A stretch of 18,288 nt of DNA from the IMG/VR virus record IMGVR_UViG_2703718771_000014. One strand, 5' to 3'. Numbering within the stretch: position 1 is the stretch's first letter; each line of letters opens with the position of its first letter. The position numbers and the translations under genes are program-made. This document shows positions 1-12,499 of this stretch, in pieces. Source of the DNA: a virus (Duplodnaviria; Heunggongvirae; Uroviricota; Caudoviricetes). The notes beneath the pieces were generated by a model. The model did not search any database, was not told the origin of the DNA, and saw only the letters and a list, made by a program, of their open reading frames with translations.

Positions 1-1236
1 CTACGATAACCGCGCATTCAACATGGCTATCTGTTCGTCGTTCATGTCATCAATCCACATACCGTAAATTTCATACACCATCTGCGCAGTTTCATGCCCC
101 ATTTGGCTGGCTATAAATGCCGGGTTCGCTCCTGCCGTCAACAGCCAGCAGGCAAAAGTATGCCGCGTATGGTACGGATTACGACGGCGAATACCAGCAC
201 GTTTTACTGCTGCATTCCACCTTGCCCCCAAACTGCTTACCGAGTAATAAGGTTTTTGTTTTCCGTTACACACCCTGGGCATGAAAACAAAATGCAGTTT
301 TTGCTTTTCGGTTCTGCCGTACTCCCGATGGTAAAAGGTTATTTCGCTTTTGCGATGATGCCCGGTCAGTTTGTATTGCTCCTTCAGTGCTTCAAGAGCA
401 GGCTGCAGTAGTGTTACTGTCCGGATCCCGGCATTTGTTTTTGGGGGACCGAACATATCAAGTATCGTCAGGTTTCTTCTGACATTCACTATTCCCTTTT
501 CGAGATCCACATCCTCCCACGCCAGAGCTGCCAGTTCCCCGTGACGAAGTCCTGAGTAAACGGCAAATTTCCACAAGTTCTGGCTCTGTCCTTTTTCACT
601 TTCCATTAATGCATTGAATTCTGTTTTAGATAACGGATCAGGCTTTATTCTGTTTCGCTGTAATTTTTTTACTCCTTCAAATGGTTTGGTTGATATAAAT
701 CCCGACTGATACGCAAAACGCAACAGCGAACAGAGCAGGGCGATATAGTTATCAACTGTGCGCACGGTTCTTCCTTTTTTGTTGGATCTTGGATTATCCA
801 GGTAAAGCGTTTCTCCATGCAGCAGTTCATTCCGGTAGTTTAAGATATCGCTATAACGAATATGTGATATCGGGGTACTTTCACAAATTATTATTCTGAG
901 TGTTTTTAATTGTGATTTTGTTTTCTTCATTGTGTTTGTTGTTAACTCTGTCTCTTTAATTTTTGTCCAGATATCACAAAGCTCTCCGAACGTTTTTATG
1001 ACTCTCGTTGTCACCATTTTTGCCCCAGTGCTGGACTGGGGAAAACGTCTTAAATACTCAAATTCACCGGAGTTTATTTCATGAACTATCAGCGCTCTTA
1101 AATTTCCGGCCTTTTTAATATTACTGTTTGTAATCTCCCAGCCTTTTAATGTTTCCCGACATCGTTTTCCTCGAAACATGAACCAGATGCGAATGTATTT
1201 ACCTCGAATCTCGACACCTGTTGGTAATTTAGACAT
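1..1236 (-). CDS. intR: Phage integrase, tyrosine recombinase (Rac IntR type), 411 aa
   Basis: Full-length ORF in the six-frame track. The translation matches my recollection of E. coli K-12 Rac IntR along its whole length. The stop codon sits at window positions 1-3. Confidence 0.93.
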   Translation of the reverse strand: MSKLPTGVEIRGKYIRIWFMFRGKRCRETLKGWEITNSNIKKAGNLRALIVHEINSGEFEYLRRFPQSSTGAKMVTTRVIKTFGELCDIWTKIKETELTTNTMKKTKSQLKTLRIIICESTPISHIRYSDILNYRNELLHGETLYLDNPRSNKKGRTVRTVDNYIALLCSLLRFAYQSGFISTKPFEGVKKLQRNRIKPDPLSKTEFNALMESEKGQSQNLWKFAVYSGLRHGELAALAWEDVDLEKGIVNVRRNLTILDMFGPPKTNAGIRTVTLLQPALEALKEQYKLTGHHRKSEITFYHREYGRTEKQKLHFVFMPRVCNGKQKPYYSVSSLGARWNAAVKRAGIRRRNPYHTRHTFACWLLTAGANPAFIASQMGHETAQMVYEIYGMWIDDMNDEQIAMLNARLS

Positions 1237-1991: not shown

Positions 1992-3044
1992 TCAGGAGCC
2001 GATATATTCTGGTTTCATATCTGTCAGTGTCGTTTTATACGCCTCATATAATTCACCCAGATGTGGCCGGGCAGCATTCAGCGTATTTTCCAGAGCAGTA
2101 AATTTTTGTTCTGCTTCTGGATCACCTGAAGAAGGTAGGTCATTTATCATCTTCTCGATACGGGCAATAGCATTGAGACGGTGATGACGCTGAACCACTT
2201 TTCCTTTAAGTTCCGTATAGAGAGCGCCAAGTGTATTTTTATGATCTTCCACTTCCTGGCGAAGTGCTGTTGTTTCCCCGGTGCTTTGTGCCTGCTCAAT
2301 ACGTTCACGGAAAGCATCGATCCAGTTTTCCCCGGCATCCTGCTCAATAATTGTTGTTTCACGTTCCGCGCGGCAAGCGGAAGTGTTTTTATGTTCCTGA
2401 ACCGGATTAATGATTTTTTCCTGTGGCTCGTCCAGTTCGTCCCTGGTGTACACTCCAAGAATCACTTCGGGGCAATAAAGGCGCGCCCAGCGTTTCAGCG
2501 CTAGATAGGCAAGCTGCTGGCGAGGATCGTCGGCCCATAGCGTTGAGTTACGTGTTCTGGCCTGCGCCAGAAGTAATTCCAGTACGCGTGGTTTACTTTC
2601 GCCGCGTAGTGTTGCCTGGACACGAACACCGATCCCGTTTTCATCGGCCAGCTTCCAGCCAGGTACACGATATTCTTTCCCTTTGTCGCTCTTCCTGATT
2701 TCAAATTTCCCGATAATTTTTTCCCACGGCCCGAACCAGTCATATTCAATACGCCCGGTTAGCGGCCCACGAGTACTGATTACGGCATTAACCAGTTGCG
2801 CTTCATATCCGAGCACACCATTCACAACGAAAGTTTTCTGAGCTACTGCGTAAGGGTTCATTTGCCACTGCATCGCCTGCATGGTGATGGCCATGCAGTC
2901 TGATGGATTTCCTCGGAGGTGTTCCGGTACAGTAGCCATGCCGGAAGCCATTACCTGGGAAAATGTCTGAATTGCAGCCATGGACTGAGGGCTGAAAACC
3001 GCAACATTAGAGTTAATATTTTCTTGTTGAGTTAATTCGTTCAT
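1992..3044 (-). CDS. Putative single-strand annealing protein, divergent RecT-like, 350 aa, with a predicted C-terminal coiled coil
   Basis: ORF with an AGGAAGG SD. It lies 11 nt downstream of the recE stop, in the slot recT occupies in K-12. The sequence differs from K-12 RecT as I recall it, but the core motif layout (LW..DP..Q..A.KRWAR..P versus RecT PW..HWEEMAKKTAIRRLFKYLP) suggests the same family. Confidence 0.6.
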   Translation of the reverse strand: MNELTQQENINSNVAVFSPQSMAAIQTFSQVMASGMATVPEHLRGNPSDCMAITMQAMQWQMNPYAVAQKTFVVNGVLGYEAQLVNAVISTRGPLTGRIEYDWFGPWEKIIGKFEIRKSDKGKEYRVPGWKLADENGIGVRVQATLRGESKPRVLELLLAQARTRNSTLWADDPRQQLAYLALKRWARLYCPEVILGVYTRDELDEPQEKIINPVQEHKNTSACRAERETTIIEQDAGENWIDAFRERIEQAQSTGETTALRQEVEDHKNTLGALYTELKGKVVQRHHRLNAIARIEKMINDLPSSGDPEAEQKFTALENTLNAARPHLGELYEAYKTTLTDMKPEYIGS

Positions 3045-3055
3045 TGTGTCCTTCC

Positions 3056-6000
3056 TCAGATGCTCAGTGCTTCAAGACGACGAAGATCAAAGTCGTTTAA
3101 TTCGTCGGTATAACTTTCGGTAATCGGTGCTGGCCAGTTGTTTGTCTCCAGGGCTTCGTTTATCTGGCGTAGCGTCCGGCGATATTCCTGTCGACCAAGT
3201 TCCAGGAGTTCCTGCGAGGCTTCCACGACTGCCACCCAGTGATAGCCAGCATCTTTGTTGACGAAGATCCAGAAAAATTTGTCCAGGTTTGCCACATCGC
3301 AATACATTGCGGCGCTGAGGTGATAATCACGCTCAATAATTTCACGGTGCAGGCGATCTTTAAGTCGTTCCTGTCGCACATAACCGAGGCTGACTGACTT
3401 CACGTCAGCGCAAATGCTTTCGTATGGCAGCCGGATTTCGATATCAGGACGGACCCTGATTTCCAGCCCGGTTTCTTCATCAAACCCGAAATAGCTGATT
3501 TCAGATTTGCGATCCGGGTGGTTGAGTAGCCTTGCTGCATCGGTATTGTTTTGCAGTGCCGCGTGAATATTTTTTGCCTGTTCATACATCTCCGGACTGA
3601 TAAACGTTTTCCCGGCATTTTCTTCTTGCTGGCGTTTTTGCCAGTCCTCCAGTGTCACCAGTTCCGGGCGAATTTTCCGTGCGATTTCGGTTAATTGCTC
3701 TTTTGTGCCACTGATGTTGTAAGGCAAAGATTTAGCACGTTCTTTTTTTGCCAGTTCTGGGTCTACAGTTTCAATTTGATCCAGAAGCTGCTCCCGTGCT
3801 CCACTGGTTTTCAACAGAGGAGGGAGGCTTGCGTTGTATTCTTTAATACAGGCTTTCATTGCTGATGCTGTGTGTTTTTCCCCCTCAGGAATACGCCGAA
3901 ATTCCACCGGAAGCGAACCGTAAAGGATGCCTGTTTCTTCGGCCCCGGCACTTACAGACAGTGGCTGTATAAGAGTGCTGTTGTAGCTTTCGATCCACTC
4001 TTTCATCTGCTCTGGTGTCATCAGTGCTGGCAGACTGGCATTGTGTTTTTTAATGATGGCGATCAGTTCGCTAGAAGTAGTAACCACATATTCAGGAACC
4101 GGTACCGGAATGGCATATTCATCAGCGAATTTATCCGTTTCCAGAACATAGCTGTGAATGATCCGCCCACGCAGCAGTGCATCACTTTCCTCGTTCGGAA
4201 TAGTTCCGGCAATGTGCCGTCCGTGGTAATACATCAGGCTGATACGGGCATCCTTCAGCATCGTGCTGCTTATTCCGTTGGCGGAGTGATAAACCTCGTT
4301 CGGGAGGTTTTCATAGCGGCCAGGCTCGAAATATGACGGCCACATGATTTCAGTTGCTACAGGAGCTGACGCTTCACCAGTTTCATCACTGCAATCACGA
4401 TGCGGATCGCTGCCAGCATTCTCATTGTGCGGATGTTCAGCGCCTTCCATTTCCTCCGGATCATTTTCCTTAGCTTCAACCTGATTCTCTTCATCGAATG
4501 TTTCCTGGTATGTTGCGTCGCCCATCACCGCACCACAGTCAGGGCAGTTATCCCCGCCAGTCTGACCGCAGGCATTGCAGACTATTTCCGGTTTCTGTTG
4601 CACTACTGGCTCAGGTTGTTTCACATCCGGGCTGGTTTTTACAGTTTCTGGCGTGTTTTGTTTCGTTTCTGGCTGGTTCTGGTACACAGAGTCGCGAGTC
4701 TGGATCCCCTTTACCCATTTCGGATCGTTCGGGTCGCTAATTCCGTCAACAAATTCACCACGTGATGCAGCAAGCAATTTATCGGCATCGACAGGATTTT
4801 TTGATGGAATGTTTTTCCGGGCTTCATGGAGTTCTGCCCGCAGTTTCTGATATTTCGCATCAACAGAATTTACCTGTGACTGAGCATCCAGCGGCTGCGT
4901 GTCCTGATGATGTTCAGTTGCATCCGGTTCCACTGTTTCAGCCGTTGCCTGTTTATCTGCCATTGCGCAAGATGGTTGCGGTTTTTCTTCACCATCGTGT
5001 TTTCCTTCTTCTGTTACACGCTGCGGCATTGGGGCAGAGGAACGACCGCAGGCAATATCCACGATTTCCGGATCAGGGTTGGCATGATCGGTTTCAATCA
5101 GCACCTTGTTCAGATATTCAGTGACATGCGCAGGGATAACCTCGATCCCAATTGGTGCTTCTTTTACGGACGCAACCACGATGGCGCGGGAATAATCCAG
5201 CCCGCCAGGCATGGTGATGAATTTGTCGCGGAAAACAGAAAAGGGCGGTTTATTTTCAGAGATAATTTCCTCGACACGTTTAGCGTGTGCCGGATGAAGG
5301 TTATAAATGTCCACGTCCATTGAACGGGCCAGGACGCCAGTGGCTACGTCGCGCGCCAGTGACGTCAGATCGTGAACGAAACCTTCGCCGCGATCGGTGA
5401 GGTTCCCGCCGCCAGCATTAGCGCCGGAAGCCGTGCGCGTGATGCGTGAAACACGATTTCCTTTCATCCACTCTTTTGTCAGCAGACCACGATCGGTGTA
5501 GTCTGCGTCCAGGTATGCTTCGAAAAAAGCAGTCATCAGCCCCAGGCTTGAATTGCCTGGATTAGGGAAAACTCTGTCAGTATCACGCACCAGTTTGTGG
5601 AGATCGCGAATTTCCAGCGGGTCGAGCAGGCTGGTTTTGTGGGAAACAGCCAGGGCAGTAACAGCTGGTAGTTCTTCAGCTCGTGCAATGTGTAATGCCT
5701 GGAGTTCGTCGCGTGAAACGTGCGTTACCGGTTTTTCGCTGCCGTGTTGAGCAAGCCAGCGAATGGGCAGCTCCTGACCGGAAATCGGGAGTAGCATATT
5801 CTCCTCAATCTCCGTCATGTCTTCGCCATTAACATTGGTATTGTCAGTGCTGGCTGGTTTGTCCTGCGCAGAGGATGAGGGCGCGATAAATACCATTGTG
5901 ATGCCATCTTCCCCGCCTTTTTTGTAACGGTTGCAGAATTCCGTATCAAATACGCCCTCTGGTGGAAGGTCATCAACAACGGGCAAATTGACGCGAACAG

Positions 6001-6181
6001 GTTTTTTAAAGTCATCTTCATCGTAGCCAGCATCGTCAATCGCAACAGCACCACGGGATATGGCAATGGATAATTTTTTCGCTTCAGCCCAGTAGAAACC
6101 GCCTTTAATACCGAGACGTTTTCTTACTTTGTCATTTTTTGCTTCGTAATACAGTGGGTAAACTTGTTTATCGGTGCTCAT
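3056..6181 (-). CDS. recE: Exodeoxyribonuclease VIII (RecE), 1041 aa
   Basis: Track ORF. From about residue 110 onward ([38 protein letters not shown]...) it is nearly identical to K-12 RecE as I recall it, including the [16 protein letters not shown] segment and the C-terminal nuclease domain. The N-terminus is longer and divergent. Confidence 0.93.
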
Positions 6182-8910: not shown

Positions 8911-9330
8911 TTACTCCGGTGGGGGATTATCTTTAAGCCTGCCTCTCAAATATTTTTCTACATACTCATCGATTTCTTTTAGCCGGACTTCAAATAGCTC
9001 AATCATTCGTTGTTGTTCTGAGCCAGGTAGCTGGTTAAACAACTCAAGAAGTTTTCGTTGGGATTCATTTAACCACAATTCAGAAGATTCCTGTTCTCCA
9101 AATAGGAGCTCAGGAGGAGATATGCCAAGTGCCTTTCCCAATACGACAGCGTCATGCACTCCAACATTTCTGCTGCCCGCCTCATAGTTACCTATACGCG
9201 ATTGCGTCCATCCGCAGATTTCAGCAAGTTTTCCTTGAGATAAACCAAGCTTCTGCCTGCGCTCTTTAAGACGCATTGCAATTTTGTCATTGAGCCTACT
9301 AGCGGCAATTTTTTCGTTTTCTTTTTCCAT
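8911..9330 (-). CDS. Prophage repressor, XRE-family HTH (CI/RacR analogue), 139 aa, no S24 peptidase domain
   Basis: Track ORF with an HTH segment (LGLSQGKLAEICGWTQSRIGNYEAG). It is divergent from the Cro-like gene across a 96-bp region carrying palindromes, followed by its own terminator. It is too short to carry a LexA-like autocleavage domain. Confidence 0.85.
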   Translation of the reverse strand: MEKENEKIAASRLNDKIAMRLKERRQKLGLSQGKLAEICGWTQSRIGNYEAGSRNVGVHDAVVLGKALGISPPELLFGEQESSELWLNESQRKLLELFNQLPGSEQQRMIELFEVRLKEIDEYVEKYLRGRLKDNPPPE

Positions 9331-9426
9331 TGCATCCTTGTATCACGAATCGTGATTTACATAAAACACAAAACAGATTGACCATATAACACAAGGTGTG
9401 TTTAAAATTGTCATCGGAGGTTTTCA
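9331..9426. promoter_or_regulatory. Divergent immunity control region with two distinct palindromes and a candidate Cro-side promoter
   Basis: Perfect 7-1-7 palindrome ATCACGA-A-TCGTGAT at 9342..9356. AACAC-aaggt-GTGTT at 9388..9402. Plus-strand TTGACC (9378..9383), 17-nt spacer, TTTAAA (9401..9406), then GGAGG (9416..9420) and the ATG at 9427. Confidence 0.6.
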
Positions 9427-9669
9427 ATGAACAAAATTTCAACATATCGAAAACAGCTTGGGCTGTCTCAAAGACAACTTGCTGTTCAGTTAGGGTGGAT
9501 ACAAAGCCGACTGGCAAATTACGAAGCAAATTTTCGTACCCCTGGACTAGAGGAGTGCAGAAAAATTGTTTCTACCCTTAATCGGCTTGGCGCTCATTGT
9601 GGACTTGACGATGTATTCCCCCCAGACGGTAAGCATAGCGAAAACAGCATAGGAGCGGTTGATTCATGA
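9427..9669 (+). CDS. Cro-like / YdaS-like XRE HTH regulator, 80 aa
   Basis: Track ORF with a GGAGG SD and an HTH segment (LGLSQRQLAVQLGWIQSRLANYE). It is divergent from the repressor and its stop overlaps the next start (ATGA at 9666..9669). Confidence 0.8.
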   Translation: MNKISTYRKQLGLSQRQLAVQLGWIQSRLANYEANFRTPGLEECRKIVSTLNRLGAHCGLDDVFPPDGKHSENSIGAVDS

Positions 9670-10088
9670 AAATCAGGCATGAGCACATCGAATCAGTGTT
9701 GTTAGCCCTGGCAGCCGAAAAAGGGCAGGCGTGGGTCGCTAACGCAATTACTGAAGAATATCTGCGCCAGGGGGGCGGCGAATTGCCCCTTGTACCAGGC
9801 AAGGACTGGAACAATCAGCAGAATATCTATCACCGTTGGTTGAAAGGTGAAACGAAAGCGCAAAGGGAAAAAATTCAGAAACTGATCCCTGCGGTTCTGG
9901 CAATTCTTCCGCGCGAGCTGCGTCACCGACTCTGCATCTTCGATACCCTGGAACGCCGTGCATTACTGGCGGCGCAGGAAGCGTTGAGTACGGCAATTGA
10001 TGCGCATGATGATGCAGTCCAGGCCGTTTACCGGAAAGCACATTTCAGCGGTGGTGGGTCGCCCGGCGATTCTGTCGTAGTGCATTGA
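9666..10088 (+). CDS. YdaT-like (CII-like fold) protein, 140 aa
   Basis: Track ORF, translationally coupled to the Cro-like gene. The MKI.HEHI start, the C-terminal ...VVH end and the 140-aa length resemble K-12 YdaT as I recall it. Confidence 0.7.
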   Translation: MKIRHEHIESVLLALAAEKGQAWVANAITEEYLRQGGGELPLVPGKDWNNQQNIYHRWLKGETKAQREKIQKLIPAVLAILPRELRHRLCIFDTLERRALLAAQEALSTAIDAHDDAVQAVYRKAHFSGGGSPGDSVVVH

Positions 10089-10165
10089 TTGAAATTGATC
10101 GTGCCGGATTGTTTTGTTCGGTATCAGTTAAATGTAACGCTGCGAGCGTTACAAGGTGAAAACAA

Positions 10166-10954
10166 ATGGCTTCAAACTGGATAAAGCTCGAGGTTATTAC
10201 GCCGGATAAGCCGGAAATATTCAGGCTTGCTGAGATTCTGAATATTGATCCAGATGCCGCATTAGGGAAGGTTATTCGCTTCTGGGCATGGGCGGATCAA
10301 CAAATGATAGACGGTAATGCAGATTGTAACGCTCGCGGCGTTACAAAAAGTGCAATAGACCGCATCACTTTTATGGCTGGTTTTGCTGATGCGTTAATTC
10401 AGGTTGGATGGCTGGTCGAAAATGACGGTGGGCTTTCTCTACCTAACTTTGAACGTCATAACGGAAAAAGCTCTAAAAAACGGGCGGTTACAAACGAGCG
10501 AGTTACAAAAATACGCGAACTGAAACGAAAAGGTAACGCTGGCAGCGTTACACAAACGGATCAAAAAGCGTTACCAGAGGAAGAGGAAGAGGAAGATATA
10601 AATACTGATCTCCCCCTAAATCCCCCTCGCCAAAAACGAGCGTCTAAAAAATTCGAGCCGGAGGCTATCGAGCTGCCTGACTGGTTGCCGGAAACACTCT
10701 GGCATGAGTGGGTTAAGTTCAGGCAGGCATTGCGAAAACCGATTCGAACGGAGCAGGGCGCTAACGGGGCGATACGGGAGCTGGAAAAATTCCGTCAGCA
10801 GGGTTTTACACCTGAGCAGGTGATTCGACACAGCATCGCCAATGAATACCAGGGCCTGTTCGCGCCGAAAGGTGTTCGGCCTGAGACGTTGCTCCGACAG
10901 GTTAACACTGTCTCGTTGCCGGACAGTGCGATCCCGCCAGGCTTCAGGGGGTAA
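10166..10954 (+). CDS. Replication initiation / replisome organiser protein (lambda O-like N-terminal domain), 262 aa
   Basis: Track ORF with an AGGTGA SD. The N-terminus (NWIKLEVITPDKPEIFRLAEIL...) resembles the phage replisome-organiser N domain. It has an acidic EEEEEED linker, internal iterons, and sits directly upstream of the DnaC-like gene. Confidence 0.75.
   Translation: MASNWIKLEVITPDKPEIFRLAEILNIDPDAALGKVIRFWAWADQQMIDGNADCNARGVTKSAIDRITFMAGFADALIQVGWLVENDGGLSLPNFERHNGKSSKKRAVTNERVTKIRELKRKGNAGSVTQTDQKALPEEEEEEDINTDLPLNPPRQKRASKKFEPEAIELPDWLPETLWHEWVKFRQALRKPIRTEQGANGAIRELEKFRQQGFTPEQVIRHSIANEYQGLFAPKGVRPETLLRQVNTVSLPDSAIPPGFRG
10326..10575. repeat. Iteron cluster (GTAACGC-N5-GCGTTAC and GTTAC half-sites) inside the O-like gene; putative replication origin
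   Basis: Inverted repeats at 10326..10344 and 10533..10551. GTTAC half-sites at 10487..10491, 10502..10506 and 10570..10574, followed by GAGGAA repeats and an A+T-rich stretch. A fourth palindrome lies upstream of the gene at 10134..10152. Confidence 0.55.
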
Positions 10955-10960
10955 CGGACC

Positions 10961-11707
10961 ATGAAAAATATTGCGACAGGCGGCGTTCTGGAACGCATCC
11001 GCCGACTGACCCCGCCACATGTAACCGCCCCATTCAGAACGGTAGCGGAGTGGCGCGAGTGGCAACTTGCTGAAGGCCAGAAACGTAGCGAGGAGATCAA
11101 CCGCCTGAATCGCCAGTTGCGGGTGGAAAAAATTCTGAATCGTTCAGGCATCCAGCCGTTGCACCGTAAATGCTCGTTTGCGAATTACCAGGTGCAGAAC
11201 GACGGCCAGCGATACGCGTTAAGCCAGGCGAAATCCATCGCCGATGAACTGATGACCGGGTGTACAAATTTTGCGTTCAGCGGAAAACCTGGTACCGGGA
11301 AGAATCACTTAGCGGCAGCTATCGGGAATCGCCTGCTGAAAGACGGTCAGACAGTGATTGTGGTTACCGTGGCTGATGTTATGAGCGCCCTGCACGCCAG
11401 CTATGACGACGGGCAGTCAGGCGAAAAATTTTTGCGGGAGCTGTGCGAAGTAGATCTGCTGGTTCTTGATGAAATTGGCATTCAGCGCGAGACGAAAAAC
11501 GAGCAGGTGGTGCTGCACCAGATTGTTGATCGCCGGACAGCGTCGATGCGCAGCGTGGGGATGCTGACAAACCTGAACTATGAGGCCATGAAAACATTGC
11601 TCGGCGAGCGGATTATGGATCGCATGACCATGAACGGCGGGCGATGGGTGAATTTTAACTGGGAGAGCTGGCGTCCGAATGTCGTCCAGCCAGGAATTGC
11701 GAAGTGA
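10961..11707 (+). CDS. DnaC-like helicase loader / IstB-type AAA+ ATPase (YdaV-like), 248 aa
   Basis: Track ORF with a Walker A motif ([10 protein letters not shown]) and a Walker B-like motif (LLVLDEIG). It follows the O-like gene. Confidence 0.9.
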
Positions 11708-11729
11708 TTTTTACCGGGAGGAAGTTTTA

Positions 11730-12499
11730 ATGGAAACCGTATTGCATGCACTGAAAGCGATGGGTAAAGCCAATTCTGTTGAACTGGCGGCGCGGCTTGA
11801 TATCAGCCGTGAAGAAGTTCTCAACGAACTGTGGGAACTCAAAAAAATGGCGTTGTTGATAAAACGGGTCACACCTGGTTTCTGGCTGGTGAAGGTGAAT
11901 CCGGGGTAACCGAAGAGCAGCCAGCACAGTCTGAAGTACCGGATGTGCTGACCGGGGAGGTCGAACAAAAAGTTACCGCGGACATGATGATTGAGTTTAT
12001 CTGTCAGGATGGGGCTAAAACGTGTGAGGAACTGGCGGATAAGTTCGGTGTTAGCATTCGCAAGGTTGCTTCCACGTTGGCGGTCGTAACAGCAACGGGG
12101 CGCCTGGCACGCGTAAATCAGAACGGTAAATTTCGTTACTGCATACCGGGCGCTGATTTACCGGCAGAGCCGGAAGCTGCATCGGTAACGGAAACCGATG
12201 GTAAAGCCTTTCCTCAGCCAACAGGTGTTGCGTTACCAGTCCGGGAAGCGGAAACACAGGAAGAAATAAAAACTGAAAGTGTGGCGGTCACAGTGCAGTC
12301 ACAGCCGTTGTTCACCAGAAAACATCCGGATGGTCTGATTTTACCATCGCTGCATGTGGCTAACCGCGAGCTGCGCCGGGCAAAAGGTCAGGTTCAGAAG
12401 TGGGAGCGTGTCTGCGCCGCGCTGCGGGAGCTGAACAAGCACCGGGATATTGTTCGGCAGATTGTCGATTCATCCGGTCGTATTGTGTCGGAAAAGTGA
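11730..12499 (+). pseudogene. Two-domain winged-helix (DUF1627-like) gene split by a -1 frameshift at an A7 run (11841..11847)
   Basis: Frame A (ATG 11730, GGAGG SD) reads [39 protein letters not shown] and stops at 11909. Frame B (track ORF 11831..12499) starts at a GTG with no SD and carries a second copy of the same domain (MIEFICQDGAKTCEELADKFGVSIRKVAS...). One extra A in the run would fuse the frames. Confidence 0.6.

Follow-up and report, generated by a model that had tools for sequence, protein, structure and literature searches.

The DNA analysed here, an 18,288-bp stretch of the viral record IMGVR_UViG_2703718771_000014 (hereafter the window), is a Rac-like lambdoid prophage of Escherichia coli, and the repeats in and just upstream of its own initiator gene most probably constitute its replication origin, a reading that we place at a probability of roughly 0.75. 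This assignment is based on comparison with related sequences and on the way in which the parts are assembled: dyads, a less stable, purine-rich tract where the linker is encoded, a domain for recruitment and, downstream, a loader gene together reproduce the design of the lambda origin (oriλ). The parts of the element and the gene that contains most of them, in window coordinates, are:

10133-10153: dyad U, TGTAACGCTGCGAGCGTTACA, in the intergenic spacer between ydaT and the initiator gene; its 19-bp inverted repeat, GTAACGCTGCGAGCGTTAC, is 10134-10152.

10166-10954, plus strand: initiator gene, 262 codons, YdaU-like in its C-terminal part only.

10196-10459, plus strand: region encoding the N-domain, residues 11-98, a predicted winged helix with putative site-specific DNA binding.

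10325-10345: intragenic dyad 1, TGTAACGCTCGCGGCGTTACA, encoding C54-T60 in a low-confidence loop of the N-domain; its 19-bp inverted repeat, GTAACGCTCGCGGCGTTAC, is 10326-10344.

10485-10510, plus strand: two direct GTTACAAA half-sites, considered auxiliary, with GTTAC at 10487 and 10502.

10532-10552: intragenic dyad 2, GGTAACGCTGGCAGCGTTACA, encoding G123-T129 in the disordered linker; its 19-bp inverted repeat, GTAACGCTGGCAGCGTTAC, is 10533-10551.

10568-10575, plus strand: half-site GCGTTACC, codons A135-L136-P137, abutting the polypurine tract.

10576-10596, plus strand: polypurine tract AGAGGAAGAGGAAGAGGAAGA, (GAGGAA)3, encoding E138-D144; counterpart of the (GAGAA)4-5 of relatives.

10594-10611: A+T-rich stretch AGATATAAATACTGATCT, together with the polypurine tract the candidate unwinding region.

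10673-10951, plus strand: region encoding the DnaT-like C-domain, residues 170-262, which ends IPPGFRG; a putative helicase or loader adaptor.

The original prediction placed an origin here on the grounds of three near-identical 19-bp inverted repeats and at least nine GTAAC/GTTAC half-sites within ~440 bp, and both observations hold. The dyads have the form GTAACGCT-N3-AGCGTTAC. The pattern GTAACGCTNNNNGCGTTAC, with up to two mismatches allowed, has 6 hits in the window when both strands are counted, all confined to the three dyads, and shuffled sequences gave a mean of 0.03 and a maximum of 2, with none of 200 reaching 6; a chance origin of the dyads is excluded. Nine of the 43 pentamers in the whole 18,288 bp fall within the 442 bp from 10134 to 10575 (at 10134, 10326 and 10533 on the minus strand and at 10148, 10340, 10487, 10502, 10547 and 10570 on the plus strand), for which our own arithmetic predicts about 0.8-1. 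Similarly, GCGTTAC occurs 10 times in the window, with 1.74 expected, and 7 of the 10 are within 10134-10574. The spacings from dyad to dyad, 192 and 207 bp, are those of dispersed rather than tandem sites, and in place of a tandem array of iterons there are two intragenic dyads ~200 bp apart and a half-site that abuts the polypurine tract. The GAGGAA repeats that had been noted are the tract itself. Direct half-site repeats are likewise present, although only GCGTTACC is kept throughout the family and the sites at 10487 and 10502 are not.

Relatives of the N-domain were gathered with peptide patterns that do not overlap the repeats and by alignment-based scans of viral contigs led by a distant member of the family, as a scan with the window protein returned only copies that are 96-100% identical. 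The resulting 252 loci contain 83 unique N-domains that form 47 clusters at ≤90% N-domain identity, with sources that include E. coli/Shigella, Mixta, Erwinia, Pantoea, Pectobacterium, Samsonia, Stieleria (Planctomycetota), freshwater, marine and gut metagenomes and the phages TL-2011b, Xanthomonas CP2, Pseudomonas PAN70 and Ralstonia QkW1. Dyad 1, GTAACGC-N5-GCGTTAC, is located at about +148/+160 relative to the gene start in 46 of the 47 clusters, dyad 2 is present at +337 to +400 in nearly all, and dyads are almost absent elsewhere in loci of up to about 6 kb. Over 93 sites the extended consensus is GTAACGC-T-NNN-A-GCGTTAC, with 54 distinct spacers, and the consensus of the 21-bp dyad is T/G-GTAACGC-T-NNN-A-GCGTTAC-A. 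The GTTAC at 10502 (+336) recurs in Mixta, Erwinia, Pantoea and Pectobacterium, the exception being Samsonia, which belongs to the Enterobacterales and has the full N-domain; that at 10487 (+321) is local to the lineage of the window.

Enterobacterial alleles have a duplication of 12 nt (four codons) immediately before dyad 1, seen in the protein as DGNA-xxNAxSVT, that supplies an additional left half-site. The duplicated half-site is intact (GGTAACGC, at +148) in Mixta, Pantoea and Pectobacterium (L003, L010 and L011) and is present in the window in the degenerate form GGTAATGC at 10314-10321, 12 nt upstream of dyad 1. The chromosome of Stieleria magnilauensis (L013 and L014; 7.98 Mb and 8.02 Mb) has two initiator modules with N-domains 54% identical to that of E. 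coli, with both canonical GTAACGC dyads and the (GAGAA)n tract present, an unusually broad span of hosts for one site specificity.

The N-domain and the dyads stay together while the surroundings change. By BLAST, the C-terminal regions of 45 clusters make up 17 mutually unrelated groups, and the neighbouring genes vary, with a methylase, Roi, a repressor or ydaT upstream and a DnaC-like protein, a DnaB-like protein or RuvC encoded downstream. Only the N-domain thus travels with the sites, and the C-domains are interchangeable. Homology to other E. coli ydaU alleles begins either at 10593, just past the polypurine tract, or ~100 bp further on at 10697: K-12 records align only to query positions 609-872, corresponding to 10697-10960 in the window, and the other ydaU alleles align from 10593 onward. 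The positions of these breakpoints indicate that the N-domain, the repeats and the polypurine tract form one exchangeable cassette placed on a common DnaT-like C-domain.

Comparison of the alleles further indicates that selection on the dyads acts on the DNA and not on the protein, because synonymous codons are frozen, spacers are free to vary, the reading frame differs, the arms covary and distant lineages have dyads of their own. Within dyad 1, the codons GGT (34/34), AAC (39/39), AGC (30/30), GTT (39/39) and ACA (30/36) are fixed or nearly so, and elsewhere in the same genes their frequencies are 22%, 61%, 24%, 32% and 27%, respectively. Close E. coli alleles differ at only 2 of 42 arm positions, compared with 8 of 15 spacer positions (Fisher p = 1.3e-4). 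Most clusters read dyad 2 in frame 1, but several have it in frame 0, where it encodes VTQQALQK or VTHDALPR rather than xNAxSVTx, and dyad 1 is in frame 0 in two clusters.

When the core of a site departs from the consensus, it does so at every site of that genome. Both dyads of L197 are GTGACGC..GCGTCAC, with GCGTCACC at the tract. In L214, the dyads are GTCACGC..GCGTGAC and GTCACGA..GCGTGAC, and ..CGTGACC is at the tract. The asymmetric GTGACGC..GCGTAAC is present at both dyads of L187, and a GCGTTAG-type right arm is common to PAN70 and L218. In phages with more distant N-domain lineages, other dyads occupy corresponding positions: GTAGACG-N6-CGTCTAC at +153 and +369 in the Ralstonia phage Raharianne, TGTCCGC-N7-GCGGACA at +64 and +364 in the Pseudomonas phage phiPSA1, GTCAC/GTGAC-type sites in a Vibrio phage with an N-domain of a distant lineage, and in epsilon15 a GTCCGC/GCGGAC cluster that ends with GCGGACC at the tract. 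Taken together, the patterns of change are those of binding targets that coevolve with a sequence-specific protein.

Downstream of dyad 2, the order in the window is GCGTTACC (10568-10575), AGAGGAAGAGGAAGAGGAAGA and then TATAAATACTGATC. The 43 bp from 10562 to 10604, which hold the half-site, the tract and the A+T-rich core, are 93% identical in genes that are otherwise 67% identical, and no other 30-bp stretch within 9900-11300 is less stable than that from 10581 (to 10611), which ranks at the 97.7th percentile of the window. As a family mean, the coding strand from +20 to +39 past dyad 2 is 86% purine and 62% A+T. In 30 of the 45 clusters with a readable junction, the half-site at the tract is GCGTTACC, with close variants in the rest, and these variants match the dyad of their own genome (GCGTCACC in L197 and the GCGTGACC type in L214 and L229); in other lineages it is GCGGACC or GCGACTACC. 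What directly adjoins the half-site in most relatives is AGAGAAGAGAAGAGAAGAGAAGA, a (GAGAA)4-5 repeat. Tract DNA of the AGAGAAGAGAAGAGAAGAGAAGA type is identical in epsilon15, CP2, QkW1, phiPSA1 and Raharianne, phages in which the half-sites differ (GCGGACC, GCGTTACC or GCGACTACC), and the junction, ..ACC followed directly by AGAGAAGAG, is invariant across lineages with differing half-sites. The tract is read as ALPEKRREEK in some genes and as VTREEKRREE, in a different frame, in others. In relatives its arginine codons are AGA in 90 of 90 cases (10% elsewhere) and its lysine codons AAG in 55 of 57, and this fixation of codons, together with the differences in frame, indicates that the repeat is maintained as DNA.

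The polypurine repeat is widely shared. The exact 22-mer AGAGAAGAGAAGAGAAGAGAAG, the window counterpart of which is 10568-10596, is found in at least 120 viral contigs in IMG/VR (L267-L386). Among the matches listed, it is mostly a few hundred nt inside an initiator-like open reading frame; most of these frames start MAGDWIK.., and others start MRIKNWEKFNLY.., MAKELPYFKF.. or MIVEPGFFDHWKT. In most of the contigs listed, the ~50 nt before the tract contain three or four short, lineage-specific repeats, among them GTCCGC, GTAACGC, GTCACGC, GTAGACG, GGGGGACAAA, CTAGAGG and AATGCAA, often with two repeats pointing forward and then two pointing back, at a spacing of ~11 nt, and ending with ..ACC against the tract. 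Whichever of the three frames is read, (GAGAA)n encodes cyclic EKRRE.

The original prediction called the initiator gene O-like. A Pfam scan at E ≤ 0.01, with the lambda O family included, found no family in the product, and homology to the lambda O family is therefore not supported. The protein matches PHROG phrog_2509, 'replication initiation protein', at 1.5e-89 and, marginally, phrog_4880, 'replisome organizer' (E 0.0086). It joins an N-domain that is winged-helix-like as modelled, and for which Pfam has no counterpart, to a linker predicted to be disordered and a DnaT-like C-domain. The AlphaFold2 model has a mean predicted local distance difference test score (pLDDT) of 66.9. The N-domain (residues 11-98) is predicted with confidence and has the order helix, helix, loop, helix, helix, beta-hairpin; residues 54-57, in the peptide of dyad 1, have a pLDDT below 50, as does the linker (residues 99-160), which is predicted to be disordered, and the C-domain is helical. 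A Foldseek comparison of the model with the PDB returned nothing below E 0.1. When residues 170-262 were compared with PDB sequences by phmmer, the C-domain of DnaT was matched (2ru8_A, E 1.1e-4; 9zbt_D, E 3.7e-4), and the NCBIfam DnaT match is weak (E 0.0059, 16 bits vs a curated cut-off of 201). Dyad 2, the half-site and the tract encode residues 123-144 and so are located inside the linker between the two domains. The gene that follows (10961-11707), ydaV, has matches to the Pfam families IstB_IS21 (1.3e-19) and Bac_DnaA, an ATPase domain (1.3e-8), consistent with a DnaC-like helicase loader.

From this arrangement, we infer binding of the sites by the N-domain, unwinding at the polypurine and A+T-rich DNA, helicase recruitment by the C-domain and a start of replication at this location. 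The 21-bp dyads would be bound by dimers of the predicted N-terminal winged-helix domain, and the DNA would open at 10576-10611, the polypurine tract and short A+T-rich stretch that adjoin dyad 2 (10532-52) and the half-site (10568-75). The dyads ~200 bp (10325-45) and ~400 bp (10133-53) upstream would supply further initiator dimers, acting for example through looping or wrapping as in the lambda O-some, and dyad U might also throttle read-through transcription into the initiator gene. The DnaT-like C-domain would then recruit the DnaB helicase via the DnaC-like product of the next gene. Prediction of a prophage origin inside the initiator gene thus has strong comparative backing, from DNA-level selection, frame independence, concerted change and co-variation with the N-domain; homology of the gene to O and a tandem arrangement of iterons do not.

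Several observations weigh against the assignment of an origin. Beside the tract there are one full dyad and half-sites and no tandem array. The A+T-rich stretch that had been predicted is real but short and modest (~62% A+T; the G+C fraction is 0.38 over 10550-10609). DnaA boxes are not enriched in the window (44 vs 40.7 expected), and none adjoins the sites. As the tract also encodes an acidic part of the linker, some of its conservation could be at the protein level. Finally, the published polymerase chain reaction primers for 'oriJ', the origin of the Rac prophage of E. coli K-12 (PMC3945230, supplement), map to 11218-11236 and 11354-11372, which is inside ydaV, about 650-800 bp downstream of the dyads. 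This mismatch is tempered by the facts that K-12 carries a different allele and that an amplicon need only be near the origin.

The position of the primers could also be accommodated if the dyads were autoregulatory operators only, bound by the initiator or by another regulator so as to limit transcription, and the real origin were elsewhere, for example in or beyond ydaV (11218-11372 being the primer interval). Dyad U is well placed for such a role, in an intergenic spacer of the operon, 14-32 nt before the ATG, and ending 1 nt before the Shine-Dalgarno sequence AAGGTGA. Every E. coli-type allele has it at -32/-33, where the arms do not vary and the spacer is tgcga, ttaca or tcaca, and it is also found at -42 (Mixta/Erwinia) and -44 (Pantoea); as its arms are conserved and its spacer is variable, dyad U is probably functional. 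A scan for promoters, however, found no sigma-70-like site near any dyad, leaving promoter occlusion by dyad U unsupported. In the survey of 47 clusters, dyad U is absent from the other lineages, that is from most relatives, whereas the intragenic dyads are nearly universal, and simple repression does not explain the strict abutment of half-site and polypurine tract, which is repeated with other half-sites. Regulation and an origin are, moreover, not mutually exclusive. We regard operators alone as an improbable explanation, even though it is the strongest competitor of a replication origin. In Pantoea sp. BAV 3049 (L010 2930-2990), dyad U is inside a copy of the surroundings of dyad 1 (..ATCGACGGTAACGCAAATAGTAACGCTGCGAGCGTTACAAAAAGCG..), which indicates that the upstream site arose through duplication of the internal one.

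Recognition of the dyads by a protein other than the initiator, either a host factor or a product of a neighbouring gene such as the CII-like YdaT, RacR or YdaS, is less probable again. YdaT and other helix-turn-helix regulators are indeed encoded immediately upstream in the window, but the dyads persist beside the wholly different neighbours listed above, from methylase and Roi to RuvC and DnaB-like genes, and across hosts from Enterobacterales to Planctomycetota. The arm variants and alternative dyads track the lineages of the N-domain, and the C-domains to which it is joined are interchangeable.

It is very improbable that the palindromes act as hairpins in RNA or single-stranded DNA, affecting for example mRNA stability, processing, translation or termination, rather than as protein-binding sites in duplex DNA. 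A 7-8 bp stem closed by 3-5 nt could fold from each dyad, dyad 2 scored as terminator-like on the minus strand, and both arms have changed symmetrically in L197 and L214. Nevertheless, only 7 of 49 deviations from the arm consensus keep complementarity and 42 break pairing while the sequence of the half-site is conserved, a pattern that points away from a hairpin and towards recognition of the individual half-site; in L187 one and the same arm mismatch is kept at the two dyads, and unpaired half-sites such as GCGTTACC are conserved too. A scan of 9300-11800 gave no relevant Rfam match, no T-run follows dyad U, and the single site found in the terminator scan (dyad 2, on the wrong strand) compares with 2.4 in shuffled sequences. 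Least likely of all is that the repeats are the by-product of a required peptide motif, G/C-N-A-x-S/G-V-T: dyads 1 and 2 of the window do both encode xNAxxVT, but the synonymous positions are frozen, frame-0 copies of dyad 2 encode the other peptides given above, an identical dyad is present in non-coding DNA upstream, and the peptides concerned are in a low-confidence loop and in a disordered linker. On the evidence given for each, peptide by-product, hairpin or RNA element, and sites for neighbouring regulators were all rejected.

The remaining annotated genes of the window that place the origin candidate in its prophage context are:

1-1236, minus strand: integrase.

1992-3044, minus strand: RecT.

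3056-6181, minus strand: RecE/exonuclease VIII.

8911-9330, minus strand: RacR-like helix-turn-helix repressor.

9427-9669, plus strand: YdaS-like helix-turn-helix protein.

9666-10088, plus strand: YdaT/CII-like protein.

10961-11707, plus strand: ydaV, the DnaC-like helicase-loader gene with the IstB_IS21 and Bac_DnaA matches.

After the DnaC/IstB-like ATPase gene: gene for a DUF1627 protein.

The closest DNA relatives, at 93-96% identity, are the Escherichia phages vB_EcoS-666R9, -673R7 and -613R10 and 'phage Rac' MN652886, and in these records the 262-codon gene is labelled 'DNA replication protein O' or ydaU. The whole initiator gene is present in 679 of 5,426 complete E. coli genomes. 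The Actinobacillus pleuropneumoniae phage PP818812 (vB_Apl-pPE4) has 95.5% DNA identity to 9427-10093 of the window (ydaS-ydaT), a match that is unusual for its host and possibly reflects recent transfer or contamination of the record. Direct repeats of TTGATTGAAATTGATC at 10087-10102, where ydaT ends and the intergenic spacer begins, shortly before dyad U, could be a regulator site.

If the dyads and tract are an origin, the origin has been located for a type of prophage that is present in about one in eight complete E. coli genomes and for many phages of other bacteria. A code for DNA recognition, half-site versus N-domain lineage, would be defined, and the conserved polypurine repeat would be a candidate for a generic opening or loading element. 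One stretch of DNA would serve two purposes, encoding part of a DNA-binding protein and being the probable binding site of that protein, and rules drawn from the sequences could be used to annotate phage origins and to build minimal replicons. The type of origin seems to be lambda-style in design, and this version of it was not found described in the literature searched; a search on the polypurine 19-mer, 'EKRREE', DUF1376 and 'DnaT-like' phage origins returned nothing relevant, and no paper that mentions the tract in a phage context was found. The principle is an ordinary one; what deserves attention is the clarity of the comparative signal and the widely shared polypurine repeat beside half-sites that are specific to each lineage.

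A broader and more tentative proposal, which we think possible although the odds are against it, is that the window element belongs to a widespread and apparently undescribed class of phage origins. In this class, lineage-specific half-sites (GTAACGC, GTCCGC, GTCACGC, GTAGACG, GGGGGAC and others) would always end with ..ACC directly against a near-universal polypurine repeat, and this repeat, its DNA kept in every frame, would itself serve for unwinding or helicase loading and be engaged in single-stranded or non-B form. Such a class would be a phage analogue of the DnaA-box/DnaA-trio arrangement, and origins could be predicted from sequence in hundreds of phages. By analogy only with the DnaA boxes and DnaA-trio of bacterial oriC, a double-strand site would directly abut a short-period repeat that could be engaged as a single strand; the proteins, the sequences and the period of the repeat (5-6 nt in the phages vs 3 nt) differ.

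The closest parallel for the organization as a whole is the origin of lambda, where the middle of O contains iterons that are imperfect inverted repeats of 19 bp, together with an AT-rich tract, and where two iterons and the AT-rich region are enough for unwinding (PMC7466680). As in lambda, other lambdoid phages and Shiga toxin (Stx) phages, the candidate origin occupies the part of the initiator gene that encodes the linker between a DNA-binding N-domain and a recruitment C-domain. Also as in lambda, the inverted repeats, each of ~19 bp, would suit a dimer, a less stable tract that is A-rich or purine-rich adjoins them, the helicase-loader gene is immediately downstream, and the sites and the N-domain are swapped between phages as a module. 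The window initiator is, however, not homologous to O, and in place of the 4-6 tandem iterons of lambda there are two or three dyads ~200 bp apart and single half-sites, with one dyad inside the region that encodes the DNA-binding domain. The tract consists of polypurine units of short period, (GAGGAA)3 or (GAGAA)n, and its AT-rich core is no more than short; the C-domain is DnaT-like with a DnaC-like partner rather than lambda P.

Origins inside the coding sequence of an initiator are also present in Bacillus phage SPP1, with oriL in gene 38 (encoding the replisome organizer G38P), and in P22, with ori in gene 18, and both consist of repeats plus an AT-rich region. The types of repeat differ from those in the window, and the marginal phrog_4880 match is the sole sequence relation found.

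The Rac prophage is reported to carry an active origin, oriJ (PMC3945230, PMC11014345). The window and K-12 Rac have in common the order int, recT, recE, racR-like gene, ydaS, ydaT, initiator gene, ydaV and ydaW, and they share the C-domain, with ~94% DNA identity in the C-terminal part of the initiator gene, and the loader. They differ in that the N-domain of K-12 YdaU is DUF1376 and that K-12 ydaU has no GTAACGC dyads and no polypurine tract, with GTTCAAACA repeats at the equivalent place. The sites in the window are, thus, not the oriJ sequence of K-12 Rac. The RefSeq record of K-12 has no rep_origin feature at the ydaU-ydaV replication module. In ydaU of K-12 MG1655 (L266 4511-4577; NC_000913.3 about 1421510-1421576), GATGTTCAAACA is present twice in direct orientation, 33 bp apart, with an inverted TGTTTGAACA, and an A-rich stretch follows; the position is the equivalent linker-coding one, and these repeats are candidate iterons of K-12 oriJ. 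That K-12 has its own GTTCAAACA repeats fits the idea that each type of N-domain brings its own sites.

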